Source: a bacterium
Lineage (GTDB): Bacteria > Hinthialibacterota > Hinthialibacteria > Hinthialibacterales > Hinthialibacteraceae
Reading direction: 5' to 3'
Assembly: GCA_963663405.2 (NCBI GenBank)
Contig: CAXXSM010000083.1
Span: 1 to 37,631 of the forward strand
Length of the DNA stretch: 37,631 nt
The notes beneath the pieces are model-generated. The model did no database searches. It was not told where the DNA came from and saw nothing but the letters and a program-made list of their open reading frames with translations. The translations under genes and the position numbers were made by a program. Below are positions 1,531 through 28,939 of the stretch, piece by piece. How positions within the stretch are numbered: position 1 is the stretch's first letter; each line of letters starts with the position of its first letter.

Positions 1531-3393
1531 TCAGAGTTTCGCCAATCGTAGAATGACATCTTCCGGTTGTTGCTGCGCGGAGATCATGGATTTCTTACTG
1601 ATCAATCGCTCCACCTTCCCATCGCGAACCAAGAAAAAATGACCGGGTTTCAAAGCGGGTAAATGGCTTGTGGCGTCCAACCGGCATTCACTCAACATCG
1701 GTTTCACTTTTTTAATTGAGGTTTCTTCCTTAATCCGGCCAAGAAACCATGTGCGAACCGTATCCCGGCACTTATAATCAAAATCCCCCGGACTCTGTGT
1801 CGCTAAAAATACGGAAACACCGGCGGACCGCGCCCGGCGGAGTAAGTGCTCCATCGGCTCCTTCGCGGCGGGTTTGCGGGTAGCGGGCAGATAGATATCC
1901 GCTTCATCAAACAATACAATCGCTTGCAGCTGGGGGCATGGATGACGGCCGATCCAACGCCCCATCTCAATTAAAAACTGCGCAATCCAGAAATCCACAT
2001 CCTGCGTTTCGCCAAGAAATTTCGTGCAAATGATACTCAACCGGGTTTTTCCCGCGCGTCCAGATCCACTCGTTCCCAACAACTGTCCAATATCCAACCG
2101 TTCTCCCTTCCCTTGCAGGAGTTCATTTTTTGTGAAGCGGATCGTTTCCAAATCTGTAATCAGTGTTTTAAACAATTTAGAATCAAGCCGTCCAATCGTG
2201 TTCATAAATCCTGATTCCCGGTTATCAAGAAGCAGAACGATTTCATCAATGGTAATGTCCGTTTGAGGAGCGAACTGGAGAAGATAGGTAATCGCGCATT
2301 GAAGGATCGCCTGTTTGGGATTATGAACGCTGGATTGAGGATATCCAATCATCCGGCAAATTGAAGTGGCCGCCTGCTGGGCGATCTGATCCCGTTCAAC
2401 GCGACCCAGGTCTTGTGCGTTAAAAGGCGCCAAAGCGATTGAAAGTGATCGGCCGCGTGAATCCCCCGGTGTGTATACGGCGATTTCCACACGCTCTTTT
2501 AACATTTCCCGCATCTTGGCGCCTTCATCGGAAGCCGGCGCATTCCATGACGCGGGATTCGCGTAACTGCTTAAGTCACCTTTTCGATCGATCATAATCG
2601 CGGGAACGCCGCGCACAAGACACTGTTCAATTAATGCCAGCGCCGCCGTCGTTTTCCCGCAGCCCGACCCCCCAACGAACGCCACATGGCGTATCAATTC
2701 ATTCCCCTCTAAAAAAACAGGCTGAACGGCGCGGTCATCCGTCCATCCGGCAGTAATTTTTGAATCCTCATTTGCTGGCAAATCAACCTGAGACTGGACG
2801 GCAAGAGAAGATTTGATTCCATTACTTTTTAAAGTTGATCGCCGGCCGTTTTCAACACCAGCGTCAAAGGACTCCTGTTCAAACGCCGTTTGAACACAGT
2901 CCGATAAATCAAAAATCGCTTGAACGCTGGGAAGGCGGGACAATGGTTTCGCGCGGCGCAGCCAAGTGAAGAATTCCGGTTTCGCCCGGTTACGCTTATG
3001 AAATTCTTGAAAGGCCATCATCGCGCGCCAATCAGAATCTTCAATAACCACACACCGCGCGCCTTTCTTAATCAGACCGCCTAAATATTGAACGATCTTG
3101 CTGGCGGGAGCGCTTGGGAATTCAGCCGTTCGAACAATGATAATCCGGCCCGCGCTGACAGAGGAGACAAACTCTTTAATCTCCCGTTCAAGTCCTCCAC
3201 CTCGGGCGTCTTTGTTGCAAAGACCAATTACGAGTGGCTCTATCCAACCGTTTACTTCGATACGATTATTCTGAGCCTTGATTGAGAGCGTAGAAGTATC
3301 GTCCAATTCCCGGGAACTGATCATGAGAGACTGCGCGAGAATCTGCGTGAGTTTAACGGATTCGACCGGAGGCTGCAAAGTATTGTTGATCAA
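1531..3393 (-). CDS. HerA/FtsK/VirB4-superfamily ATPase (DUF87/DUF853-like); probably the C-terminal part of a fusion with 3413..4705
   Basis: RHVAFVGGSGCGKT (Walker A), MIDRKGD, IVLFDEADIYLP (Walker B), LLRRARSAGVSVFLATQSPGD (Arg finger and ATQ motif). The frame stays open upstream of the TTG start to 3453 (KPALSDRENATAFERAWNDCL). Confidence 0.85.
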   Translation of the reverse strand: MINNTLQPPVESVKLTQILAQSLMISSRELDDTSTLSIKAQNNRIEVNGWIEPLVIGLCNKDARGGGLEREIKEFVSSVSAGRIIIVRTAEFPSAPASKIVQYLGGLIKKGARCVVIEDSDWRAMMAFQEFHKRNRAKPEFFTWLRRAKPLSRLPSVQAIFDLSDCVQTAFEQESFDAGVENGRRSTLKSNGIKSSLAVQSQVDLPANEDSKITAGWTDDRAVQPVFLEGNELIRHVAFVGGSGCGKTTAALALIEQCLVRGVPAIMIDRKGDLSSYANPASWNAPASDEGAKMREMLKERVEIAVYTPGDSRGRSLSIALAPFNAQDLGRVERDQIAQQAATSICRMIGYPQSSVHNPKQAILQCAITYLLQFAPQTDITIDEIVLLLDNRESGFMNTIGRLDSKLFKTLITDLETIRFTKNELLQGKGERLDIGQLLGTSGSGRAGKTRLSIICTKFLGETQDVDFWIAQFLIEMGRWIGRHPCPQLQAIVLFDEADIYLPATRKPAAKEPMEHLLRRARSAGVSVFLATQSPGDFDYKCRDTVRTWFLGRIKEETSIKKVKPMLSECRLDATSHLPALKPGHFFLVRDGKVERLISKKSMISAQQQPEDVILRLAKL

Positions 3394-3412
3394 ACAATCG
3401 TTCCACGCGCGC

Positions 3413-4705
3413 TCAAACGCAGTCGCATTCTCCCTGTCGCTGAGCGCCGGTTTCTAGAATCACTTCCGGCGGGGGCGGCATCTGACCCGCCGCTGCCTTA
3501 TCCAGGTATTCCCGCAGCCAATTCAGCGCATCGCGGGTACGTCGTTTCCCTAATCGTTCAATCTCAGACGCTGGAATCGGCGCGGTTGGATCAGCGGGAT
3601 CAAATACGACATTCATGCGTCTAAAAAGATAACGCAGCCGGTACTCTGCAAGCTGTTTAATCTCTTCCACTGTACGCTGACTGTCTAGAACAACCGGTTC
3701 CGGATCAATCTCGATCCGGTCTTGGATCGACTTCGCCACTTCATCTTTCAGTTTTAAATAGTAATCCTCTAAACAGCTGATGATGACCAAACAGGCGGGT
3801 ATCCGGTCGGCTATATCACGCGCGGCCGTCATGACGCGCCGGAATTGGACCTTTGCGTCTTCCATATTGTAAATATCCTCCATCTGATCCAGACAGAGGA
3901 TAAGAGGCGTATGATGAGCCGCCCACATGAGCCGGCCAATCCATTCAACAAGAAAAGCCGGATCTTCTTTCCGGTTTCTTGGAACGATCCCACCGAGTGA
4001 GTGGCGATAGCGCGGCGAAAGGTTTTCACACCGAAGGTATTTCAACACCAGATTCTTCAAATAAGGATCGTTTCGCTGCAGATAAAGAAACGCGGATATC
4101 AGATCGATATCGATCCCATAAAAACGCGGTTCCTTCACAATACATTTCGCCATAAACGAGACGGCTTTTTGTACACCCTCCAGGGAGATATCCTTTTCGC
4201 GAAAAGCCGTCATCAATTCCTTTCGGACACTCATTTTGATTCGCTCAACAGTAGATCCACTTACAAACGTGTCCGCTAGCGCATTAGATAGACGTATCAA
4301 TCCACTTGTCGATGTGCGGGTTTCATAATAGGGACGATCAAGAGATTCAATTAGATACCCAAGAATATATCGGGAATAATCTTCTGTTTCGGAACTCATC
4401 TGCATGTAGCCGAAATAGCCCAGGCTCCGCTGGTGTGTGGTATTCCGAAACGCGCGGAGAAGATGTGTCTTCCCCGCGCCGGATTCCCCTAACAAAAGAA
4501 GAATCCGTCCGGATGTAATATCCGGCGTGTTAATAGCGCGGTCAAGCAATCGCTCAAAGGCCGCCCGCGCCTCCACGTGGATGGCTTTCACATCAAAGGG
4601 ATCTTCTTTCCAAATATCATGACGGTATGAAACGGAATGAAAAATCTCAGGCGCGTTTCGGTCACAATAGGCTTTTAAACGTGGATCATGAGGAGAGAGG
4701 TTCAT
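3413..4705 (-). CDS. AAA-like P-loop ATPase; probably the N-terminal part of a tandem ATPase fusion
   Basis: ILLLLGESGAGKT (Walker A), LILCLDQMED (Walker B-like). ATG overlaps the upstream stop (ATGA, 4702-4705), with GGAG RBS. Ends just after a Pro-rich linker (GQMPPPPE). Confidence 0.8.
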   Translation of the reverse strand: MNLSPHDPRLKAYCDRNAPEIFHSVSYRHDIWKEDPFDVKAIHVEARAAFERLLDRAINTPDITSGRILLLLGESGAGKTHLLRAFRNTTHQRSLGYFGYMQMSSETEDYSRYILGYLIESLDRPYYETRTSTSGLIRLSNALADTFVSGSTVERIKMSVRKELMTAFREKDISLEGVQKAVSFMAKCIVKEPRFYGIDIDLISAFLYLQRNDPYLKNLVLKYLRCENLSPRYRHSLGGIVPRNRKEDPAFLVEWIGRLMWAAHHTPLILCLDQMEDIYNMEDAKVQFRRVMTAARDIADRIPACLVIISCLEDYYLKLKDEVAKSIQDRIEIDPEPVVLDSQRTVEEIKQLAEYRLRYLFRRMNVVFDPADPTAPIPASEIERLGKRRTRDALNWLREYLDKAAAGQMPPPPEVILETGAQRQGECDCV

Positions 4706-5745
4706 TCGTCTCCTCCATCAAAGCGGATGAAATGATAACAGGCGTTTAAATGCCTTGTTTCCGACGCGGCGACATCTCCAGGATCCATCGCTTCCACGAG
4801 ATCCGCGCGGCTCAACGTTAACAATCCGTTCTGATGCGCCTCGACAAGACGCGATTGGAACGATTCTTTGTCCAAGTTATAATTACGATGCATTTCTCGA
4901 AACAGCCACCATACATGTGAGATAAAAATCTTTTGCGTACCAAACCAGCCCGTTTGACAATTCCGCGCGGTGAGAATGACATTCTCCGCGAAAGCCGATA
5001 GATCAAACGTCGCGTTGGATTGAGACTCATCTACAGTTCTGTTTTTTGGCGCAGCCGTTTCAATCCCATCGACGAGACTACGCAACGCCGCCATCTGTAA
5101 TTCGCTTTTATCGCTTCTCCGCGCCCCAATCTCTTGAGAGGGCAGCAATTTTGCCAATTGTTCTAATGTCTGACGCCGGGGAGTATTCACCAAAGGATTC
5201 AAGAGATGTTCCTTCACCGCGTTCAAGTGAAATGGCGCGTCTGTCTCTACATCCAACGCCCGCCACAGCAGCGCGTCGAAAGCCTGTTTGAGCGTCGGGA
5301 ATTCCGGCACTTTCAGCGCGCGTTTTTTTTGAAGGATCGCTGCGCGCAGCCCATCCACCTTGGCCAGCCGGTCTTTCTGCTTCTCGTTATCGAGCCGCAA
5401 ACCAAGCGAGAGAGAAACGAGATAAACATTCTTTAATCGTCCCCAAACCGTCTTCTCCGGAATTTCATTCACCCCCAAAAAAGCAAGCGCCGCTTCCCTT
5501 CCCTTCGCGGTTAAAACCGCGCGTACGCTTCGTTTCGCTTTCGTATTTTCGATTAAGCCGTCATTAAAAAGAGACGTCCAGCATGTCTCAAACAAACCAA
5601 TCCATTCTTCCCCCAAAATCCGGTGCTGTACAAGCGGTGACAAATCCTTTCGAACATTGATGGGTGTTAAACCAGAATCGCCTGGATCTAAAAGACGTGT
5701 CAAAATTAAATATCGAATCGCGTCATCGGAAGGTTGATATTCCAT
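4702..5745 (-). CDS. Uncharacterised ~347-aa protein, possibly with winged-helix domains, translationally coupled to the ATPase
   Basis: Long ORF; ATG at 5745 has a GGCAGGA RBS (the track start at 5781 is TTG). Basic, helical N-terminus ending in a wing-like 'GLIE...AVLTAKG' segment; C-terminal segment GWFGTQKIFISHVW...LVEAHQNGLLTLSRADLVEAMDP. The fold call is inference. Confidence 0.75.
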   Translation of the reverse strand: MEYQPSDDAIRYLILTRLLDPGDSGLTPINVRKDLSPLVQHRILGEEWIGLFETCWTSLFNDGLIENTKAKRSVRAVLTAKGREAALAFLGVNEIPEKTVWGRLKNVYLVSLSLGLRLDNEKQKDRLAKVDGLRAAILQKKRALKVPEFPTLKQAFDALLWRALDVETDAPFHLNAVKEHLLNPLVNTPRRQTLEQLAKLLPSQEIGARRSDKSELQMAALRSLVDGIETAAPKNRTVDESQSNATFDLSAFAENVILTARNCQTGWFGTQKIFISHVWWLFREMHRNYNLDKESFQSRLVEAHQNGLLTLSRADLVEAMDPGDVAASETRHLNACYHFIRFDGGDE

Positions 5746-5956
5746 GATTTCCTGCCCCCAATCGTTCCTGCGAACCAGCAAAATCCGAAGCTTTTATTGT
5801 ATACCCTTGAATAGAAGTGTTTAAAGAGGCGTCCTCCAGAATATAGAATTGGATTTTTTAATACTCATTCTATCTTCATGCGATTTTCAGCAAAAAAAAA
5901 GATCAAAAAACGAAAAAGTAAGAATTATACAACAAATAGAATTCATCAAATCGATG

Positions 5957-6021: not shown

Positions 6022-7305
6022 ATGCTAATTGAATTCTCCGTAACTAATTTTCGCTCGTTTAAAGACCGGCAATCATTGAGTTTAGTGGCGAATAATCAAG
6101 ATCACGATCATACGGACAGCCTCATCAGTTTAAAAGAGATTGGTCTCGATAATGTGAATCTGATCAAAAGCGCGGTGGTTTATGGAGCGAACGCGGCGGG
6201 GAAAAGCAATCTGTTCAAAGCGGCGCGGTTCATGCGTGAATTTGTGCTGGATTCAGCGGAGAACGCAAAATCAAGGATGGAGACCGGTACCGCACCGTTC
6301 CGGCTCGATATGGGATACGCCAACGCGCCCAGTGAATTTGAGATTATCTTCATTCATGAAGGTATTCGCTACCAATATGGTTTTGTTTTGGACCGAAAAG
6401 CCGTGCATAAAGAATGGTTGTACGTCTTCCCAAAAGGAGAGCCGGAGAATTGGTTTCTTCGTCTTTGGAACGCGGATGTCAGGAAATATGCGTGGCAGTT
6501 CGGTGAAGAATTAAAAGGAGATCCCACCCGGTTGAAAGGGATTACGCCCTGGAATGTATTATTTCTATCCAACGCGGCGAAAGAGAACCATCCCCAATTG
6601 ACGAAAGTGTATGAGTGGTTTTTAAACTCTTTCCAATTTATCGATTGTTCCTCGGAAGATTTCGATCCTCAATATACAATCTCCATGATGAATTCCGATC
6701 CTATTTTGAAGAAAACGATCGGCGACCTAATGAAACAGGCGGACGCGCGGATCACCGGTATAGACATCGAAACACATGCCGCCAGTGAAATGGAATTACC
6801 CGCCGATTATCCTGAAGAAGCGAAACAGGAACTGCTAGAAGAATTTCAGGGGATGGAAGTGTTGAATTTTCAAATGCGCCATCGGTCCACCGATCCAAAA
6901 ACCGATATTGCGTTTGACAGGGAGGAGGAATCTTCGGGCACATTGAAATATTTTTCCCTGCTTGGCCCTTGGCTGGATTATTTAACGAATGGGGTCACGA
7001 TCTTCGTGGATGAAATCGACGCCAATATGCACCCCCTATTGACACGTTATCTGATTCAGATCATCAATCTACCCAGCAATGATGAAGGAGCGCAATTGCT
7101 ATTTACAACACGCGACAGCGCCCTCATTGACATGTCACAGTTCCGCCGGGATCAAGTCTGGTTTGCCGAGAGAAACCGGGGAGGCGCGACAGTGATCTAT
7201 CCCTTGACTCACTATAAATCAAGTAAGACCAAACCGAAGGAAAAAGATTTTATCGAAGGCCGTTTCGGTCTGATTCCCTTTTTGAAAAGCGAATTTCCTT
7301 TTTAA
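6022..7305 (+). CDS. AAA_21 / RloA / AbiEii-like ABC-type ATPase
   Basis: MLIEFSVTNFRSFKD N-terminus, VYGANAAGKSN Walker A, ESSGT signature, IFVDEID Walker B, ANMHP D-loop, AQLLFTTRD (H-loop position), FRRDQVWFAE and GRFGLIP C-terminus. Confidence 0.9.
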   Translation: MLIEFSVTNFRSFKDRQSLSLVANNQDHDHTDSLISLKEIGLDNVNLIKSAVVYGANAAGKSNLFKAARFMREFVLDSAENAKSRMETGTAPFRLDMGYANAPSEFEIIFIHEGIRYQYGFVLDRKAVHKEWLYVFPKGEPENWFLRLWNADVRKYAWQFGEELKGDPTRLKGITPWNVLFLSNAAKENHPQLTKVYEWFLNSFQFIDCSSEDFDPQYTISMMNSDPILKKTIGDLMKQADARITGIDIETHAASEMELPADYPEEAKQELLEEFQGMEVLNFQMRHRSTDPKTDIAFDREEESSGTLKYFSLLGPWLDYLTNGVTIFVDEIDANMHPLLTRYLIQIINLPSNDEGAQLLFTTRDSALIDMSQFRRDQVWFAERNRGGATVIYPLTHYKSSKTKPKEKDFIEGRFGLIPFLKSEFPF

Positions 7306-10300
7306 TACAGGCGCCAAGGGGATATAAATGTCGCGGGATTCGTCGGCTCCGGTGTGGGTTCAGGCTCGCTGATGGAAAAAATCAATCGAGGACGAAGTTC
7401 AGGAGCAAGCCCTTCGCTGCTATGAAATCTGTGACCAAGCCATTCAGTACCTTCCGTACGCAACAAAAATCCATAGTTGGACGCTTCATTATTGATCCAT
7501 AAACGTACCAATTCCGTTACATCCCAATCCACCCAAGTTGGTTCGCTGAACGCTGGAATGGTAGTTGTCGTGTAAATAAAAGGATCAAAATCCCCTCCTG
7601 GCGTTCTCCAAGCGGAACCGGGCGCGGCCAATGTCCATGTAACGCCATCGGGAATATAACCAGCGCCGGGATATGGATTATCTCCCGTTCCTTCTATCCA
7701 GGGAGACGTAAGCCGGAAAACGTTCACGACTTGCGGACGTTCATCTCCCGCGTCAACATTTTGAATGTGATAGAGAGATAATACAGCGCTATCAATTTCT
7801 ATCCCATCCGGTATCGGGCTAAGGTCGAAACGGATCAAAATACGGTGACGTTCGACATCTTCTCGAAACGTGCCTAGCACATCCCATCCACCCAGCTGTG
7901 TCGTTTCCTCCCAGAGATTCGTAATCACAGCGTCGGCCACACCTGTATAGTTCACATCCGGGCTGATTCCTCTTTGAAAGATCCAAGTTCCTGGACCTAT
8001 GGGAATGCTTGTGGGTTCCAGTTGCGGTGGATTGGTATCCGTGGGAAGCGGAGTCGGCAAAGATGTGACTGTCGGAATGGGTGTAAAGACAGGTTCTTGC
8101 GTTGGAGGGGATGTTTCAATCGGTGGAACGGGGGTTGGGATTTGTTCATCCGCTTGAACGAAATGAAGAAAGATCGTTCCCGCCGCGACGGCGTTAACCA
8201 GCTCTTTGCTCGAATGATAATGACTTAAATCCCCTTCATAGAAGGGGTCTTGGCTGCCAGTGTTAAAACTGGGAATGGCGTATTCCTCCATCCATCGAGA
8301 CTCGCCCGTGATCGCGTAAGCCAGGGCGAACGCGTCCGCCGCAAGAAGCATCCACGAGTTGATTTCATTACCCGTGCATCCGCTGAACCACGCGCGATCC
8401 CCATCCCGTGTCATATGGTTGGCCATTGCTTGGAGCGCATGTTCAAGAGCGGGTATCGCCTCTTCATTCAACGGTTCTCCCGCGTCTAACGCGGCGAGAA
8501 TGTATTCCCCATGGCTGCGCGCAAATAACGCCGACGTCCAGCTGCCACAAGTAAAAGAATCCTGCATGCATACATACCAACGTGCGGCGTTACCCGCGCC
8601 AACAAGATAAGCGTGATCGCCGGTAAGACGCCATGCCCAAACGAGAATCCTTTGCGCATTCGCAATAGAACGGAGTGTATCTGTCCCATAGCCTTCTCCC
8701 GAACCGGCGCCCCACGCCAGCGCCGCGCAGGGATCACTGCCGCTATTCCGCAGCCGCCAGAGGGTGTTATCCGCCATTTCAATCGCCGCTTCACGTGTCA
8801 CCTCATCCCCCGTGAGAAGCGACCAAGCCACCAAACCGGTGACGCCATAGTAGAGATCTGGATGAGGGCTGTTGCAATTCCGATGAGGATTGGTCAATCC
8901 ACTTTCATCGTGCATGCTGTGTCCCCAAGCGCCGCCATCATACCAATTGCGGGTAGATTCGTATCCTCGAACACGAGCGTGATAGATATCGATATCAGCA
9001 AAATGGCGATTGGAGATTTCCGCCCATCGCCACCATTCCTCACCATTGATACGCAACGCCTGATGGAGGAATCCTAGGCTTACGTCATATTTCACGTTAT
9101 AAGGGCTTCGGCCATCTTCAAAATCAGTTGGCAAATCGCCGAAATCGGTCCACCCAAATAAATCCCACTGAACTTGCGCGTCGTTCACACTGGCCGCCAA
9201 TCCATCCCGGTTCTCCCGTGTGGGATCGAACTGCGCGTCGAGGTAGTCTTCATAATCAAAAAACTCATCCTCCCGCCGAGGTCCAATGTATCCAAGACCG
9301 TGAGTCGAACGAAGCCATGAAAAGGCTGAATGCGCGATTACATCCCCAGGAGGCGTGGAGGATGGGTCAAGCGTAATCCAAACATCGTGAGTTTTCTGTT
9401 CACCCGTGCGGAATCGATGATCGATGGAGTATTCACCAGGAAACATCCCCAATTCCAACCGTCCCTCTCTTGCGCGCAGGGCTTTGGGGAACAGTTCGCG
9501 AAACCAAGGAACATACATCTGAATTCCCCCCGCTGTCAAAATCCCTTCCGCGATGTTTCCAGTTTCCACTTCCACACCATCACGCAGATGGACAAATCCA
9601 CGCCGTATAACTCCAGACTGCATACGTGGCCCTTGTCCCACATAGAAATCCCAATTTTCAGTCCCACTCGAATCCTGATAGAGAATTTCCTCCGAACCTT
9701 CTGGATTCGCTAAAAGAAGCGACCATGTAATATCATCGAAAGCAATCATTCCAGGACTGTTAAGGCCTTGAAAAATGGGCTGACTGGAACTGACTTCACA
9801 ATCACCATTATCAGCGCCGGGTACTTCCCATCCCATCGAAGCGGGGGTATGGTTCGTCAATGTCAGACGGACACGGACATAGGGAAGCCCAGCGAAGAAA
9901 TGAATACGCGCCGTAAGATCGAGACCATGAACCGCTTCTTGAGAACGTAAACAAACCATTGTCCGCAATGGACCGCGTTCGATAAATTCGATCTGCGCGG
10001 GCCGTTCAGGAAGATCCCATGTAGCGCCGAGGACACGGGCGCCGCCGTCTGGACCTTCAATGGATTCAAAAATATTGTTGTTAGGCGCAATGTGATAGCG
10101 CCCAGCTCCCGTATCAATGACAAAGCTTCCATCGCCTGAATCCGTCACGGTTATCACTTGTGATGGAATAGGAGATTCTCCCTGTTCCAACCAATATTGA
10201 TTCCCAGCTTCCGCTTGAAAATCCACAAGCAACCATGAAATCGTATCGTCAATTCCCGAACGAGCGGAATTTCGGATTTGGCTGGGAATCGGACCGTTGG

Positions 10301-12434
10301 AACTCGTAACCATAAATTCGCTTGGATCCCACTCCCCACGTGGCAATGGCACGCCTACTGTTACGGGAATCGCCTCAGTAATCCCCTCCGGAAAACGGAT
10401 CTCTAATGGGATAGAGGAAATCCCACCGCTAGGGACATATGGTGTGGGTGTCGAAGGCTGCGGCCTAGAAGTCATTGTAGGAGTATTGGTCTGCAAACGA
10501 GTCGGAACAGGTGTATCAGTCACGATCGGGGGAGGAGTAAGAATATCGCTCCCTCGATTGATAATCAACCGGTTACCGCTAGGAGAAACAGCGAAACCGG
10601 TCACAGTGATCAGTCCATCCTCATCAGCGGTCACTGTGCCATTAGCGACCAATGCGTTATCACTGACACGCCGGTTCTCCCATGTATACACAACATCAGG
10701 ATGAATAAGGAATTGTTGGAGCCGCCGGGGTGTTACGTCAACTGTCTGATCGCCATCAAGGGAGCGTATCGCGATTTCCCACCAACCCGGCGTATCGACG
10801 GGTGGCCCAGCCCAATCATTCCAGGAGGCGGACCATTCCAACGTCATGTTGTATCCCCCCGTCCTATCCGGTACCGGCGGCAGACTGCCCGACGCGTACG
10901 TCAAGCCTGGCAGAGTCTCATTACGTACAAAAGACAATCCATAAAAAGGACCGGAGGCGCCGGGTTCCCACAATTCTCCCGCAGTTGGGCCTTGTCCATT
11001 AAATCCAACCCATGTGTGATCCGCTTCCACAATCGCGCCGGAAAATGCGCGGCGGGAGAGGCAGAAAGGCTCATAACCAAGCCGTCCTTGAGATTCCCAG
11101 GCGATCACACGATCCAACGTGCCATGCGCCAGAGAAATGAAAGCCATATCATCCCCCCGGCGTTCGATCAAATTCGCTTGATGATTCTGCCAATCCCACA
11201 CACCGGTTCCATTATATCGCGTCAAATGACCGGCATAGACGCCACGATTCTCGATCGGCAAGTTTAAAGCAACGCTGCCCCATTTCGGTTCAAGATCCGA
11301 GCCGACCCAATCGAGACCTTCTGTACCAGTCGATCCTTCCCGATAATTGGTCATCGGTTCGCTGCAATACACCGCCGCAAACACATTGGGATACCGCAGA
11401 GCCAACGCAAGAGCGCCGCTTCCTCCCATCGAGTGCCCATAAGAATAGACACGCTCTGGATCGATGTTGTAACGAGGATCTCTCAAGGTATCGTAGACAG
11501 CGCGCAACAGCCGTTCTTCCGTGAAATTAACGATAGGACCCGTGGTAACAGGAGCGCTTTCCGGCGGAGTATATTGATGAGTGGCGCTATAACCGTAATA
11601 CCAGGATTGCCGCGGATCGTCGCACCATAATTCGATTGCGCAGTAATAATGCGATCCATCCCCCGCTTCATAACGGCTGCCATATCCTTCTATATGCAAA
11701 ATGAGAGCGTATTGATCCGGCGTTACTCCACTACATTGTTCAGGCGAAGGCAATCCAACAAAATAATTATAAGCATAGGTAAGGCCGTCTGTTGTTTCAA
11801 ACGTTGGATTCCAATTTGCGAAATCCATGAACTGCGTATACACCCGGCCGAGACCGTTTTCAGATTCCCATACAAGAATGGGTTCGGGATCGGCGGGGAT
11901 TTCCTGAATTGGGCCAATTGTGTTTTCCCCACTGAATGCGGATCGATTCTCTTCGCCATTGTAAACCGTTGTGACAGCGTAGTAGGAATTTTGGGGTTCC
12001 GTCGTAGTCCATACAAACAAGCCGGTTGTAGCGCGTAATTCCGGCCCCAGCGGTTCAATCACATATGTCCGGATAGATGTGTACCCGCCATTCGCTTCCG
12101 GTGGATAGTCTGTAGCGCGCATACGTTCCGTATGATACGCGCTCGATCCTTCCGGCAGCGTGACCAGCAAATGGGCCTGATTCAGGTTGGCGACGGTAAT
12201 GGGCGCCGTATGTCTGTAAACGCGGTACTGTTCTCCGTGGAGATCCGTTAATTCAAACCAAGTTAAAAACGTCTGGCCACTCCGGTGAAAAGCGTTCAAA
12301 TTAGAAGATTGGGACGGCTGCGCCACCCCCTCTCTGTCAAACAAGAATAGCGCGAGCAGTATAAAAAAAGCCGATAAAATAGCGCGTTTCTGGCATCGAA
12401 TCGGGGAAGAAATAAAGAAGAGCTTACGATTCAT
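7302..12434 (-). CDS. 1710-aa secreted multidomain protein: alpha/beta-hydrolase esterase + PcRGLX/YetA-like (rhamnogalacturonan-lyase-like) region + DNRLRE/CBM96-like domain
   Basis: N-terminal hydrophobic signal; YSYGHSMGGSGA nucleophile elbow (11421-11438); P/T-rich linkers; IPVTVGVPLPRG...SWLLVDFQA and FGWTDFGD typical of YetA/PcRGLX-like proteins; RILIRFDLSPIP...SAVLSLY...WDVTELVRLW...NYGFLL...SSE...RPRL C-terminal domain. AAAGGA RBS upstream. Confidence 0.8.
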   Translation of the reverse strand: MNRKLFFISSPIRCQKRAILSAFFILLALFLFDREGVAQPSQSSNLNAFHRSGQTFLTWFELTDLHGEQYRVYRHTAPITVANLNQAHLLVTLPEGSSAYHTERMRATDYPPEANGGYTSIRTYVIEPLGPELRATTGLFVWTTTEPQNSYYAVTTVYNGEENRSAFSGENTIGPIQEIPADPEPILVWESENGLGRVYTQFMDFANWNPTFETTDGLTYAYNYFVGLPSPEQCSGVTPDQYALILHIEGYGSRYEAGDGSHYYCAIELWCDDPRQSWYYGYSATHQYTPPESAPVTTGPIVNFTEERLLRAVYDTLRDPRYNIDPERVYSYGHSMGGSGALALALRYPNVFAAVYCSEPMTNYREGSTGTEGLDWVGSDLEPKWGSVALNLPIENRGVYAGHLTRYNGTGVWDWQNHQANLIERRGDDMAFISLAHGTLDRVIAWESQGRLGYEPFCLSRRAFSGAIVEADHTWVGFNGQGPTAGELWEPGASGPFYGLSFVRNETLPGLTYASGSLPPVPDRTGGYNMTLEWSASWNDWAGPPVDTPGWWEIAIRSLDGDQTVDVTPRRLQQFLIHPDVVYTWENRRVSDNALVANGTVTADEDGLITVTGFAVSPSGNRLIINRGSDILTPPPIVTDTPVPTRLQTNTPTMTSRPQPSTPTPYVPSGGISSIPLEIRFPEGITEAIPVTVGVPLPRGEWDPSEFMVTSSNGPIPSQIRNSARSGIDDTISWLLVDFQAEAGNQYWLEQGESPIPSQVITVTDSGDGSFVIDTGAGRYHIAPNNNIFESIEGPDGGARVLGATWDLPERPAQIEFIERGPLRTMVCLRSQEAVHGLDLTARIHFFAGLPYVRVRLTLTNHTPASMGWEVPGADNGDCEVSSSQPIFQGLNSPGMIAFDDITWSLLLANPEGSEEILYQDSSGTENWDFYVGQGPRMQSGVIRRGFVHLRDGVEVETGNIAEGILTAGGIQMYVPWFRELFPKALRAREGRLELGMFPGEYSIDHRFRTGEQKTHDVWITLDPSSTPPGDVIAHSAFSWLRSTHGLGYIGPRREDEFFDYEDYLDAQFDPTRENRDGLAASVNDAQVQWDLFGWTDFGDLPTDFEDGRSPYNVKYDVSLGFLHQALRINGEEWWRWAEISNRHFADIDIYHARVRGYESTRNWYDGGAWGHSMHDESGLTNPHRNCNSPHPDLYYGVTGLVAWSLLTGDEVTREAAIEMADNTLWRLRNSGSDPCAALAWGAGSGEGYGTDTLRSIANAQRILVWAWRLTGDHAYLVGAGNAARWYVCMQDSFTCGSWTSALFARSHGEYILAALDAGEPLNEEAIPALEHALQAMANHMTRDGDRAWFSGCTGNEINSWMLLAADAFALAYAITGESRWMEEYAIPSFNTGSQDPFYEGDLSHYHSSKELVNAVAAGTIFLHFVQADEQIPTPVPPIETSPPTQEPVFTPIPTVTSLPTPLPTDTNPPQLEPTSIPIGPGTWIFQRGISPDVNYTGVADAVITNLWEETTQLGGWDVLGTFREDVERHRILIRFDLSPIPDGIEIDSAVLSLYHIQNVDAGDERPQVVNVFRLTSPWIEGTGDNPYPGAGYIPDGVTWTLAAPGSAWRTPGGDFDPFIYTTTTIPAFSEPTWVDWDVTELVRLWINNEASNYGFLLRTEGTEWLGHRFHSSEGLAPELRPRLIFSISEPEPTPEPTNPATFISPWRLY

Positions 12435-15607: not shown

Positions 15608-17008
15608 ATGAAAAAGTTGAAAACCTTTTTAATCAATACGAGTTTGTGTCTATTCAGTATACTTATCACATCGCTCGTTTTAGAAATCGGCGCACGTCTT
15701 TATTTTTCATATCTAGACCCAGCCACTGCGGCCCATATTCAGGAACATCAAAACGCTATTGCGCGATACAATGAACGTGGCTCGATCTACCAACCGCATC
15801 CCTACATTTCCTATACCCCCGGAGATGTTGCGATCGGATTGGATAGCTGTGTGATTAACGATCAAACATTCACGATCAAAAAAGAACCCAATACACTACG
15901 AGTCGCTTGCCTGGGCGGTTCAACGACGAAAAATTCGTATCCTCGTTACCTCAAAAAAGCGTTAGCAATTTGCTTTCCCGATCGATCGATTGAAATCATG
16001 GATTGGGGATGCCAGGGATGGACCATCGTCGAATCAACGTTGAACTATGTCCTGCGAGTTCAAGCCTTCAAACCAGATATTATTATTCTTCATCATGGGA
16101 TTAACGACGTGGCTCCACGGATTCGCCGGAATTTCCTGCTGGATTATACTCACTATCGGAAAGCATATAGTTTCTATGGACTGGATTGGTTCGATCAAAT
16201 GTCCGGATCAAGCTGGCTCTTGGCTTGGCTTGAATTTAGATTGGGGAGACATTGCGAAGACCTGGATACTTGGACAGTTCATCAAAATATGCCATTAATT
16301 TCGCTTGAAGAATACCCAAAGCCAGAAACTCTGGAAACATATACAAACTGCCTTGAAACTATCACACGCGTCGCAGAGGGTGATAAATCAAAAGTGATTC
16401 TCGCTGGGATGATATACAATGTAACTCAAGCGTTAATTCCCGAATACGCCGCAATTGTCGAAGAACACAATAATCTAACCCGTTCTTTTTCTGAGCATAA
16501 TAATCTGCTCTATATTGATACGCAATCCAATTTCAAACACCATCCCCTTTATTTTGCCGATCAATGTCACCTACTATCTTATCCGGATGAAATCAAAGCG
16601 TTTCTTTTGGCCAGCGCAGCGGCCCGTGTAATGGGTCGCCAACCTCACGCCTGGGTGACTGATGATCTGGGTAGCAACGTAGATTTATCCTTGGGAAAAG
16701 ATCTTGATCCTGAAAACAAGCGGCAACTAGTCATTCATTGGAACTATCCACACTCTGATATCAATGAATATCATGTTTATATCCAAGTCGATGGGGAAAA
16801 GGAAGAATTTTTAGGGAGACACACAAAGAGAAATCAACCTTACATGATTTGGGAATCCGGTAACGAATTCATCGCGCAGGGCTTTCAGGAAGGGCCATTG
16901 TTTGGTCATACATATCGATTTTCCATCTATGGATTGGGTGGCGCGTTATACGCGCCCCTATTAACCGTGGGTCCTGTAGAATACGAACAGGAGAGCGATT
17001 CTTCCTAA
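15608..17008 (+). CDS. Membrane-anchored SGNH/GDSL hydrolase with extra C-terminal beta-rich domain (paralogue 1)
   Basis: N-terminal TM, RVACLGGSTT (block I), HHGIND (block III), DQCH (block V DxxH). Confidence 0.85.
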   Translation: MKKLKTFLINTSLCLFSILITSLVLEIGARLYFSYLDPATAAHIQEHQNAIARYNERGSIYQPHPYISYTPGDVAIGLDSCVINDQTFTIKKEPNTLRVACLGGSTTKNSYPRYLKKALAICFPDRSIEIMDWGCQGWTIVESTLNYVLRVQAFKPDIIILHHGINDVAPRIRRNFLLDYTHYRKAYSFYGLDWFDQMSGSSWLLAWLEFRLGRHCEDLDTWTVHQNMPLISLEEYPKPETLETYTNCLETITRVAEGDKSKVILAGMIYNVTQALIPEYAAIVEEHNNLTRSFSEHNNLLYIDTQSNFKHHPLYFADQCHLLSYPDEIKAFLLASAAARVMGRQPHAWVTDDLGSNVDLSLGKDLDPENKRQLVIHWNYPHSDINEYHVYIQVDGEKEEFLGRHTKRNQPYMIWESGNEFIAQGFQEGPLFGHTYRFSIYGLGGALYAPLLTVGPVEYEQESDSS

Positions 17009-17208: not shown

Positions 17209-18609
17209 ATGAAAAGAAATAAAGCGTTTTTAATCAATACTAGTTTGTGTATATTTAGTATTCTTATCACAGTGTTAGTCTTAGAAATCGGCGCTCGTTT
17301 CTATTTTTCTTATCTAGATCCAGACACAGCGGACCGCATAAAAAAACATCAAAACGCAGTTGCTCGATTTATAAAACGCGGATCGATCTACACTCCTCAT
17401 CCCTACCTTTCATACACTCCCGCGGACGTAACGGTTGGCCTAAAACACTGCGTTATTCACGATCAAAAGTTTATGCTCGAAAAGAAACCAGATACTCTAC
17501 GGATCGCCTGCCTTGGAGGTTCCACAACAAAAAATTCATATCCCCACTATTTCCAAAAAGCGCTGGAGCCCTGTTTTCCCGATCAATCCCTTGAGATCAT
17601 GAATTGGGGATGTCAAGGCTGGACGATTGTTGAATCGACATTGAATTACGTGCTTCGCGTTCAAGCTTTTAATCCCGATATTGTTATCCTTCATCACGGG
17701 ATTAACGATATCGCGCCACGGATTCGTCAGAATTTTGTTCTCGATTACTCTCATTACCGGAAAGCCTATCTCTTTCCAGGTTTAAATCTTTTTGATCGAT
17801 GGTCTGGAACCAGTTGGTTGTTGGCCTGGTTGGAATTCCGTTTGGGGAGACGCTGCGCGGATTTGGATAGCTGGACAGTTCAATCGAACTCTCCATTGCT
17901 CCTCTCCAATGCGCCCCTTGAGCCAGAAACATTAAATCCATATACACAATGTCTGGAAACCATTGCCAATCTTGCCCAGAATCATGGTTCAAAATTGATT
18001 TTCGCAGGAATGATTTACAGTGTCACTCAAAACTTGATTCCAGAATACGTCCCCATTGTGGAAGAACACAATCAACAAACACGCTCGTTATCGGAACAAA
18101 AGGATCTGCTTTATATTGATGCGCAATCCAATTTCAAACATCATCCACAATATTTTGTTGATCAATGTCACTTAACCTTTTTTGCAGACGAGATCAAGGC
18201 GCAGCTTTATGCGAGCGCAGTCGCCCATGTAATGAATCGCGAACCCCGTGTTTGGATTACTGACGATCTGAATACCCAAGAGGATTTATCTCTTCGAAAA
18301 GATATCGACCATGTAAACGAACGGAAATTAGTAGTTCGCTGGAAATTATCAGATCCTGAAATTCAAGATATTCATATCTACGTGCAAGTAGATGGAGAAA
18401 AAGAACAATATTTAGGCCAACGCGCAAATCCAAATGATTCATTTTTAGTATGGGAATCCGGGAATCATTCAATTGCGCCGAATTTTCGAAACGGACCGGA
18501 ATTCGGGCATACGTATCGATTCTCTGTGTACGGTTTGGGCGCAAAAATATATCCTCCTTTACTAACCATCGGCCCCGTAAAATACGAACAGGAGAGCGAA
18601 TCTTCTTAG
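17209..18609 (+). CDS. Membrane-anchored SGNH/GDSL hydrolase (paralogue 2, tandem duplicate)
   Basis: Same 466-aa length and motifs as paralogue 1; 45 of the first 60 residues identical. Confidence 0.85.
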   Translation: MKRNKAFLINTSLCIFSILITVLVLEIGARFYFSYLDPDTADRIKKHQNAVARFIKRGSIYTPHPYLSYTPADVTVGLKHCVIHDQKFMLEKKPDTLRIACLGGSTTKNSYPHYFQKALEPCFPDQSLEIMNWGCQGWTIVESTLNYVLRVQAFNPDIVILHHGINDIAPRIRQNFVLDYSHYRKAYLFPGLNLFDRWSGTSWLLAWLEFRLGRRCADLDSWTVQSNSPLLLSNAPLEPETLNPYTQCLETIANLAQNHGSKLIFAGMIYSVTQNLIPEYVPIVEEHNQQTRSLSEQKDLLYIDAQSNFKHHPQYFVDQCHLTFFADEIKAQLYASAVAHVMNREPRVWITDDLNTQEDLSLRKDIDHVNERKLVVRWKLSDPEIQDIHIYVQVDGEKEQYLGQRANPNDSFLVWESGNHSIAPNFRNGPEFGHTYRFSVYGLGAKIYPPLLTIGPVKYEQESESS

Positions 18610-27712: not shown

Positions 27713-28312
27713 ATGAGCAGTCACGAAGAAACCCGAAATTCATTTACACTGATTGAACTGTTGATTGTTGTGGCCATCATCGGGATTCTCGCGGCCATTG
27801 CTGTACCTAATTTTTTGAACGCACAGATCCGGGCGAAAATTGCCAAATGCGAATCTGAAATGAAATCGCTGGGAACCGCGATTGAAATGTATCACATCGA
27901 TCATAACCGATACCCGTTATTTGTCGGCGTAGACGGTGTCAACATCAATCCAGTCAACCGGCGTTTGATCCCACTGACCACACCCGTCGCCTACATCGCC
28001 GCCGTTCCTCAAGATCCTTTTTTGAAGAAGATACATGGGCAGCGAGTTGTTGAGGACCAGCATGAAGCCTACGTCACCTATGATTACGTCGACGCTTGGT
28101 CGGTGATTAATCATGGGGGAGCGACGATTGTCGGCCGCAGCCTTCGCTGTTGCGAATGGCAGATCTCCGGCGCCGGGCCGGACTGTAACGCAGACACATA
28201 TGGTACCGCGCCTCTCTATAATTCGACCAACGGTCTTCTCAGTTGGGGAGATATGTACGTCCTGGGTCCGCGAGCCGGCTATCCCTGTGATCCGAGTTTG
28301 ATTGGGATCTAA
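27713..28312 (+). CDS. Prepilin-type N-terminal cleavage/methylation protein (pseudopilin-like), copy 1
   Basis: RNS|FTLIELLIVVAIIGILAAIAVPNF class III signal with Glu5; DPF and WQISGAGPD motifs. AAAGGA RBS. Confidence 0.9.
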   Translation: MSSHEETRNSFTLIELLIVVAIIGILAAIAVPNFLNAQIRAKIAKCESEMKSLGTAIEMYHIDHNRYPLFVGVDGVNINPVNRRLIPLTTPVAYIAAVPQDPFLKKIHGQRVVEDQHEAYVTYDYVDAWSVINHGGATIVGRSLRCCEWQISGAGPDCNADTYGTAPLYNSTNGLLSWGDMYVLGPRAGYPCDPSLIGI

Positions 28313-28339: not shown

Positions 28340-28939
28340 ATGAACAGCCACAAAGGAATCCGAAATTCTTTTACACTGATTGAACTGTTGATTGTTGTGG
28401 CCATCATAGGGATTCTGGCGGCCATCGCTGTGCCTAATTTTTTAAACGCGCAGGTCCGGGCTAAAATTGCAAAATGCGAATCCGAAATGAAATCATTGGG
28501 AACTGCGATTGAAATGTATCACATCGATTATAACCGGTATCCGCTGTTCGTCGGCCCGGATGGCGTCAACATTAATCCAGTCAACCGGCGCCTGATTCCA
28601 TTGACAACACCCGTCGCCTACATCGCCGCTGTGCCCCAAGATCCGTTTTTGAAGAAGATTCACGGGGCACGCGTTGTGGAAGACCAAAATGTAGCCTATG
28701 TCACATATGATTATGTTGACGCTTGGTCAGTAATCAATCATCGGGGCGCAGCGATTGTCGGCGCCAGCCTCCGGTGCTGCGAATGGCAGATCTCCGGCGC
28801 CGGCCCAGATTGCAATGCGGATACATACGGAACCGCCCCCTTATATGATGCGACGAATGGCCTCACCAGCTGGGGGGATATGTATATCCTAGGACCGCGA
28901 GCCGCGTATCCGTGCGACCCAAGTTTGATTGGAATCTGA
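28340..28939 (+). CDS. Prepilin-type protein, copy 2 (tandem duplicate)
   Basis: 181/199 residues identical to copy 1 by manual count; identical leader AGAGCTGAAAGGAACAGAAATGA at 27694 and 28321 (627-bp period). Confidence 0.9.
   Translation: MNSHKGIRNSFTLIELLIVVAIIGILAAIAVPNFLNAQVRAKIAKCESEMKSLGTAIEMYHIDYNRYPLFVGPDGVNINPVNRRLIPLTTPVAYIAAVPQDPFLKKIHGARVVEDQNVAYVTYDYVDAWSVINHRGAAIVGASLRCCEWQISGAGPDCNADTYGTAPLYDATNGLTSWGDMYILGPRAAYPCDPSLIGI

Follow-up and report, generated by a model that had tools for sequence, protein, structure and literature searches.

The DNA analysed here is contig CAXXSM010000083.1 (37,631 nt, positions 1 to 37,631 of the forward strand; GenBank assembly GCA_963663405.2, a bacterium of the Hinthialibacteraceae), and this whole stretch is called the window below. 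It carries a cassette of three co-directional open reading frames (ORFs), all on the minus strand, which encode a partner protein and, in two pieces, a double ATPase. The features of this cassette are as follows.

4702-5781, minus strand: partner gene, 359 residues from a TTG at 5781 or 347 residues from an ATG at 5745.
3413-4705, minus strand: AAA ATPase ORF (430 residues), the N-terminal part of the broken gene, with Walker A GESGAGKT, Walker B LCLDQMED and a helical lid.
3413-3455: frameshift interval in a variable linker; one base fewer anywhere here joins both frames.
1531-3393, minus strand: HerA-type ORF, 620 residues from a TTG, with GGSGCGKT, FDEAD, RRARSAG and ATQSP.
2812-3453, minus strand: middle domain, with a predicted restriction endonuclease (REase; PD-(D/E)xK) fold that lacks a conserved acidic triad, then three to four helices.
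1531-2811, minus strand: variable linker and HerA/FtsK-type ATPase module, with Walker A GGSGCGKT, Walker B FDEAD, RRARSAG and ATQSP.

The three ORFs and every motif quoted for them in a first-pass annotation of this DNA were found at the same places on the minus strand. The ATG of the first ATPase ORF lies on the stop codon of the partner gene (ATGA), and 19 nt separate the stop of this ATPase ORF from the TTG of the HerA-type ORF. Relatives of the window ORFs were found with E-values down to 1e-177, far past chance.

The first-pass annotation had described two ATPase ORFs, adding that removal of one base would fuse them into 1057 residues. The latter point was confirmed, as the HerA frame is open from 3453 while the first frame stops at 3413-3415; a reading of the two ORFs as two genes was not supported. 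Among the matches listed for the HerA ORF, 94 of the 119 non-self homologues are 997-1083 residues long and carry both AAA_16 and HerA domains, and the top homologue is 47% identical. When the fused homologue P0008 was compared with the window by tblastn, its residues 10-415 fell in the frame of the first ORF (45% identity) and residues 433-1049 in the second, where the homology begins at nt 3417, ahead of the TTG at 3393, and runs over the stop codon of the first ORF. One base removed within about 3413-3455 therefore gives a protein of about 1057 residues. No possible start codon (ATG, GTG or TTG) occurs in the stretch 3453-3393, although a Trp encoded there is invariant across the alignment, in 76 of 76 sequences (in the window within FERAWND, aligned with a WND motif conserved in relatives), which argues for a recent frameshift rather than an evolved two-gene form.

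The same conclusion was reached from genome loci and from public sequencing runs. The ATPase is fused in 67 of the 72 genome loci with a complete N-terminal half, and the 5 split loci have five different break points, none of them at the window linker. In a metagenome-assembled genome of Verrucomicrobia (L013:6570-9827), the fused gene is interrupted by one in-frame stop codon, which lies immediately ahead of the HerA Walker A region (positions 233-236 of the HerA-half profile). Four public runs were compared over the window; X1 and X2 cover only 2-4 of 30 bins and are uninformative on the frameshift site, and in X4, the run that covers the region best, no contig spans 3425 and one contig starts at 3426. 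A 151-nt contig of depth 2 from run X5, which belongs to a different study, spans 3368-3519 and has one letter fewer at 3425, a position within the frame-restoring interval, so that an in-frame allele exists in another sample. Taken together, these results indicate, at the level of sequence, that both ATPase ORFs belong to one gene, interrupted by a single frameshift within a variable linker; the extra base of the window reflects either a true mutation or an error of the assembly.

We then considered the two ATPase modules. In Pfam, the first ATPase matched AAA_16 (36.5 bits, cut-off 32.6) and AAA_22 (31.2 bits, cut-off 27), with nSTAND1 just below its cut-off, and the nearest Atlas clusters of the N-terminal half carry AAA_22, AAA_16, nSTAND1 and BrxC_BrxD. 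One homologue, P0288, bears the source name 'Orc1-like AAA ATPase domain-containing', and a sequence search with the N-terminal half (P0002) against solved structures gave nothing significant (best E 0.038; Cdc6 0.19). By these family matches the N-terminal half is assigned to the Orc/Cdc6-STAND-type AAA+ modules. The HerA ORF (P0003) matched HerA_C (39.4 bits) and DUF87 (32.4 bits) in Pfam, both over the curated cut-off, and its nearest solved relative by sequence is the YjgR HerA-like helicase (2e-10). PADLOC gave a partial mad8 match for it (8e-16, profile positions 28-258 of 314) and HerA models at 5e-9 or weaker, PHROGs gave distant HerA and terminase-type matches only, and NCBIfam gave nothing over any cut-off for the window proteins. 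Moreover, the HerA-side ORF keeps the residue at every invariant column of its alignment (first row of A2).

Between the two motors lies a domain of about 200 residues that had been regarded as unknown. Its AlphaFold2 (AF2) model, built from a 76-row alignment, has a predicted local distance difference test score (pLDDT) of 90.9 and the order alpha-beta-beta-beta-alpha-beta-alpha-beta, as in restriction endonucleases. In VIA the best match was VC1899 (Z 8.0), followed by Can2 and Cdn1 (7.3) and then by LlaBIII, SfsA, Cap4, HamA, MunI, FokI and Avs4; nearly all of the top rows are PD-(D/E)xK nucleases, with moderate Z-scores of 8.0-5. Foldseek against the PDB returned MspJI, EcoT38I and Cap4, none of them at E<=0.001. 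The invariant residues in the 76-row alignment are W17, L88, R108, F151 and W164, no acidic residue of the triad is conserved in the 76 sequences, and strand 3 reads C-N-K; therefore this domain, a modelled restriction-endonuclease fold, looks catalytically dead.

The partner was unmatched in the Pfam, PADLOC and PHROGs scans of the window protein, and DndG/DptG were likewise without a PADLOC match to it. It has 168 homologues, and no Pfam domain was found in any of the 120 listed. Its AF2 model (pLDDT 92.1) shows an N-terminal winged helix, a helical middle and a C-terminal alpha/beta domain. The fold call rests on Foldseek probabilities over a winged helix of 80-90 residues and on VIA Z-scores: Foldseek gave probability 1.0 to F-93, AspA and ArsR with no PDB match at E<=0.001, and VIA with residues 1-93 to 1-145 gave Z 9-10.8 against the winged helices of PadR, MarR and Hel308. 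A profile search added a weak DtxR match (0.0026). The possible winged helix proposed by the first-pass annotation is thus placed at the N-terminus of the partner. The most conserved part of the protein is the alpha/beta domain (residues 249-345), whose elements in the model follow an order like that of a winged helix-turn-helix (wHTH), and mean column identity over the partner is 39%. A complex prediction of the N-terminal half, the middle domain and the partner scored 0.00, which speaks neither for nor against binding.

The pair is widespread and keeps a strict gene order. In species-representative genomes at least 567 cassette loci were confirmed from 581 candidate stretches, and the best 80 of these were taken for locus analysis, with profiles made from our own alignments; they come from Planctomycetota, Myxococcota, Cyanobacteria, Nitrosomonas, Chromatiales, Verrucomicrobiota, Desulfobacterales and Bryobacterales. 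The partner gene is the direct upstream neighbour of the ATPase gene in 68 of the 68 loci with room for it (a complete N-terminal half and at least 1100 nt upstream), at a distance of up to 300 nt in 65 and up to about 650 nt in 3, so the co-occurrence of the two genes on which the first-pass proposal depended is strict. The assembly to which the window belongs (G000; 8.44 Mb, 170 contigs, 82% complete) contains a second copy on contig C147 with an intact fused ATPase gene, 45% identical to the window copy, located as follows.

G000:C147:24000-40016 (locus L089): second cassette copy, with the partner gene at 9800-10837 and the ATPase gene at 6648-9803.

The partner is likewise upstream of the ATPase in this copy and in genomes G011 and G015. 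Of 41 related genomes, only 3 (G000 included) gave strong cassette matches, and within the phylum 3 of 35 genomes did so. The cassette thus has a mobile and patchy distribution.

Clustering of the flanking ORFs revealed one widely conserved neighbour, a gene for about 400-450 residues on the same strand, directly upstream of the partner gene. The C-terminus of its product is a Vsr-like endonuclease domain (DUF559/MTES_1575) with the invariant residues D361, E372, D374, D388, R389, K391 and D392 (alignment A6), and it weakly matches a solved DUF559-type 'endonuclease-like protein' (3hrl, E 0.0014). By profile search this gene is present in 50 of the 65 loci with room for it (at least 1300 nt), as well as in G011 and G015. 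There was no profile match to it in the window or in the C147 copy, and a search of the whole G000 genome with a nuclease-gene sequence (P0244) gave a best E of 0.83. The first-pass description of a two-component module therefore stands for the conserved core, a partner of DNA-binding type with a double ATPase, while the third gene that is usual in relatives is absent here. In a tree of the HerA half (FastTree, midpoint-rooted, supports not inspected; 78 of 84 candidates, leaving out sequences without a near-full-length HerA-half profile match in one ORF), 9 nuclease-less loci form one Polyangia clade, and the other 8, among them the window and C147 copies, are dispersed between relatives that carry the nuclease; the sister of C147 is G011, in which the DUF559 gene is present. 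This scatter suggests that the nuclease has been lost repeatedly in the family, as judged from sequence. Because it has no nuclease gene, the window copy is probably inactive or works without the usual effector.

Some nuclease-less loci carry other genes beside the cassette. In the myxobacterial loci L053:9796-12111 and L063:9919-12246, proteins with a caspase and a bacterial death-like domain 3 (bDLD3) are encoded directly after it, and in L074:3905-4750 a caspase-domain gene lies just upstream. Nuclease-less Sorangium loci (L060:9942-13622 and others) encode WD40 proteins of about 1200 residues directly after the cassette, and YcaO and TfuA genes precede the cassette in Sorangium loci. The caspase/bDLD3 and WD40 neighbours may be alternative effectors. 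The C147 copy is flanked on one side by type I-E Cas3 and Cse1 and on the other by a HIRAN/ARPP-1 protein and a DDE transposase.

We further compared the flanks of 21 diverse loci with the defence models of PADLOC at E<=1e-10. Matches were obtained for 21 of 134 proteins in 11 of the 21 loci, including IetAS, Cas3, Cas12k, BrxL, a type II methyltransferase, PDC-S03 and PDC-S17, against 10 of 118 proteins in 6 of 19 regions for a control of 20 arbitrary G000 regions (19 with ORFs), where 5 of the 10 matches fell in one CRISPR-Cas locus. The control comes from one genome, the loci are non-independent, and generic families (mad2, RtcR-like, kinases) occur in both sets. The enrichment near defence genes that the first-pass annotation had proposed to look for is thus seen as an excess of about twofold, which is too weak to prove it, and the defence association of the cassette is suggestive. 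A mad2-like ORF stands right after the cassette in L016:9824-10822, L029:10121-10909 and L042:10073-10846 (PADLOC 2e-16 to 3e-20, partial); the mad2 model also matches two of the G000 control regions and may represent a generic domain. Another control region (L107, G000:C75:5001-14000) contains a WYL regulator and a type I-G/U set (Cas3g, Cas8g, Cas7g and Cas5/6g), and with the type I-E genes beside the C147 copy, G000 therefore has at least two CRISPR-Cas types.

The domain set of the cassette matches a kind of system already predicted by comparative genomics, the Orc/CDC6-coupled 'HerA/FtsK capture' neighbourhoods described in the section 'DndH is a member of a broader array...' of PMC10853773. 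As that section gives it, their core comprises Orc/CDC6, an inactive REase between the AAA+ core and a C-terminal wHTH, an active REase, HerA/FtsK and a wHTH; the domains occur in one or several polypeptides, and the operons are mobile and patchily distributed, with features of both mobile elements and defence systems. It is proposed there that the HTH parts bring the apparatus to invader DNA and that HerA/FtsK translocates this DNA to the restriction component. In PMC12839542 it is likewise stated that fast-evolving wHTH domains and effector nucleases are repeatedly found together with HerA/FtsK and ORC/Cdc6-like ATPases. Our cassette shares with the capture systems, so described, the Orc/CDC6-type AAA+, the inactive REase after the AAA+ core, HerA/FtsK, a wHTH protein and, in its relatives, the active REase, and likewise the mobile and patchy distribution. 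It differs from them in that the window copy has no active REase gene and a frameshifted ATPase gene, and that the winged helix after the REase domain is not evident in the model. The suggestion of an undescribed system therefore has to be narrowed: the domain set corresponds to the capture neighbourhoods in that section's account, although PADLOC 2.0 has no model for it, and our full-text literature search found neither an experimental test nor a name for the cassette. The locus is a degraded addition to a kind already described computationally.

Other known systems are less similar. The cassette resembles DndH of the DndFGH system, which combines a REase domain and an inactive domain of enzyme fold with wHTH modules and, at its C-terminus, a HerA/FtsK ATPase, and P0003 matches the PADLOC model of DndH weakly (5.5e-5), over the HerA/FtsK ATPase part only; in contrast, the cassette is without DndF, DndG, the inactive methylase and the SWI2/SNF2 parts, and its N-terminal ATPase is different. 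Sir2-HerA, DUF4297-HerA and NurA-HerA also combine a HerA-type hexameric ATPase with an effector in a compact operon, whereas in the cassette a single protein joins HerA with a second ATPase and a nuclease-fold domain. The anti-phage HerA models matched only weakly and partially (HerA_antiphage 20 bits against a cut-off of 800), and neither Sir2, DUF4297 nor NurA was detected in the Pfam or PADLOC scans of 7 window proteins, in agreement with the first-pass annotation, which had seen none of these partners. The likeness to BREX lies in the BrxC_BrxD clusters nearest to the N-terminal half; BrxC_BrxD is an ORC/Cdc6-clade AAA+ family according to PMC12839542, but PglZ, PglX and BrxA/B/L are missing among the 7 window proteins scanned. 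As for MADS, a system of mad1-8 that includes a methyltransferase, the mad8 match mentioned above is the best PADLOC match of the HerA half, but no other mad model matches P0001 to P0003 in the PADLOC scan of the same 7 proteins; the only other mad match is a 21-residue Walker-A stretch of an AbiLi-like ATPase encoded next to the cassette, which matches mad3 (2.6e-6). The likeness to BREX and MADS reflects shared ATPase clades, not shared systems.

Considering all of this, we regard the locus as probably a degraded copy of a horizontally spread anti-invader cassette of two to three genes, encoding a DNA-binding partner, a double ATPase of about 1060 residues and usually a DUF559 nuclease. In the giant protein, an Orc/Cdc6-type AAA+ ATPase is followed by a seemingly inactive REase-fold domain and then by a HerA/FtsK-type ATPase. 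Following the proposal in the capture section of PMC10853773, the partner and the inactive nuclease-fold domain would find or hold foreign DNA, the Orc/Cdc6 module may serve as an ATP-dependent loading or assembly switch, and the HerA/FtsK ring would pump the foreign DNA towards the DUF559 nuclease, which would cut it.

Several points weigh against this interpretation. Defence is a comparative-genomics prediction, and the match to the capture systems was made to the text description in the section cited. The Orc/Cdc6 clade membership is drawn from Pfam families and Atlas neighbours, and the model of the region after the inactive REase has helices at 139-155, 159-168, 175-181 and 184-197 and no wing strands. 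The in-frame allele of X5 comes from one contig of depth 2, and the excess of defence neighbours is only about twofold over a crude control. In addition, the nuclease gene is absent in 15 of 65 loci, including the whole Polyangia clade, and therefore the nuclease model cannot hold for all members.

It is also conceivable, although rather unlikely, that the split and nuclease-less form is a working variant, made as separate polypeptides and either needing no nuclease or served by effectors encoded elsewhere. Other domain arrangements do occur in the family: of the 84 homologues of the N-terminal half with 236-753 residues, 53 are 570-700 residues long (within P0249-P0311), a class that seems to end before HerA, and P0288, the only one of these that was aligned, comprises the AAA+ and middle domains and ends in the next linker, before HerA. 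Four database proteins of about 620 residues begin within about 11 alignment columns of the downstream window ORF, both ATPase ORFs of the window are stop-free apart from the single frameshift, with every invariant HerA-side column kept, the nuclease-less Polyangia clade is persistent, and the intact C147 copy has no nuclease either. The family thus tolerates several domain splits, in line with the capture section of PMC10853773. However, a separately started downstream protein would lose the invariant Trp and its surrounding helix, none of the 5 split loci breaks at the window linker, and the in-frame allele is found in another sample.

It is quite improbable that the cassette maintains, segregates or transfers a mobile element instead of serving immunity; an Orc/Cdc6-like initiator, an FtsK-like pump and a DNA-binding adaptor would then act together. 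In other settings HerA/FtsK pumps and Orc/Cdc6 ATPases do work in replication, segregation and conjugation, the C147 copy has a DDE transposase nearby, and the capture neighbourhoods show mobile-element as well as defence features in the cited section of PMC10853773. Against this, no integrase, relaxase, primase or replication gene was present among the conserved flank clusters of the best 80 loci, the most conserved neighbour is an endonuclease, and caspase/bDLD3 proteins make up the alternative neighbours. A programmed +1 shift of the ribosome close to where the first ORF stops, which would yield the full-length protein from the window sequence as it stands, is scarcely credible: a shift at any point in 3413-3455 would suffice and a purine-rich AGGGAG precedes the last sense codon by 11 nt, but 67 of 72 relatives encode a plain fusion, the 5 split loci all have their breaks outside this linker, the X5 contig represents an ordinary in-frame allele, and we take the site not to fit the known prfB-type slippery context.

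The variation of the neighbours allows a broader and more tentative idea. The invariant two-gene core, a multi-wHTH partner with the giant protein, might by itself form a complete sensor and DNA translocase, to which interchangeable effectors are coupled, and nuclease-less versions might protect without cutting; we hold this to be possible, though on balance doubtful. In most lineages the effector would be the DUF559 nuclease, Polyangia would use caspase/death-like-domain or WD40 proteins, and several planctomycete-type and other copies, both G000 copies included, would have none, an assignment that we put forward with the same reserve. If true, the non-cutting route could consist, for example, of stripping or pumping invader DNA or of signalling to unlinked effectors, and such a mode of action would be new for HerA-based immunity. 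The cassette combines two different DNA-handling ATPase motors in one protein and is common, with at least 567 loci in many phyla, and if its role in defence is true, it raises the question of how a nuclease works together with a HerA pump and an AAA+ switch of the initiator type. The window copy itself would be one more example of the repeated nuclease loss, and it is a poor candidate for a defence test because it is frameshifted and without a nuclease.

The cassette has further neighbours within the window. Divergent from it, at 6022-7305 on the plus strand, lies the gene for the AbiLi-like AAA_21 ATPase (PADLOC AbiLi 5e-88, AriA 2e-36); no obvious AbiLii partner follows, and the next gene, on the other strand and overlapping its end, encodes an esterase/CBM-type protein of 1710 residues. 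Directly downstream of the broken ATPase gene, a sulfatase gene at 202-1507 on the minus strand consists of two overlapping ORFs, a second frameshift, with 791-1507 corresponding to positions 1-157 and 202-951 to positions 204-300 of Pfam Sulfatase. The remaining long window ORFs are intact, up to 1843 residues. Two pairs of adjacent ORFs of equal length on the plus strand, 15608-17008 with 17209-18609 (466 residues each) and 27713-28312 with 28340-28939 (199 residues each), may be tandem paralogues.

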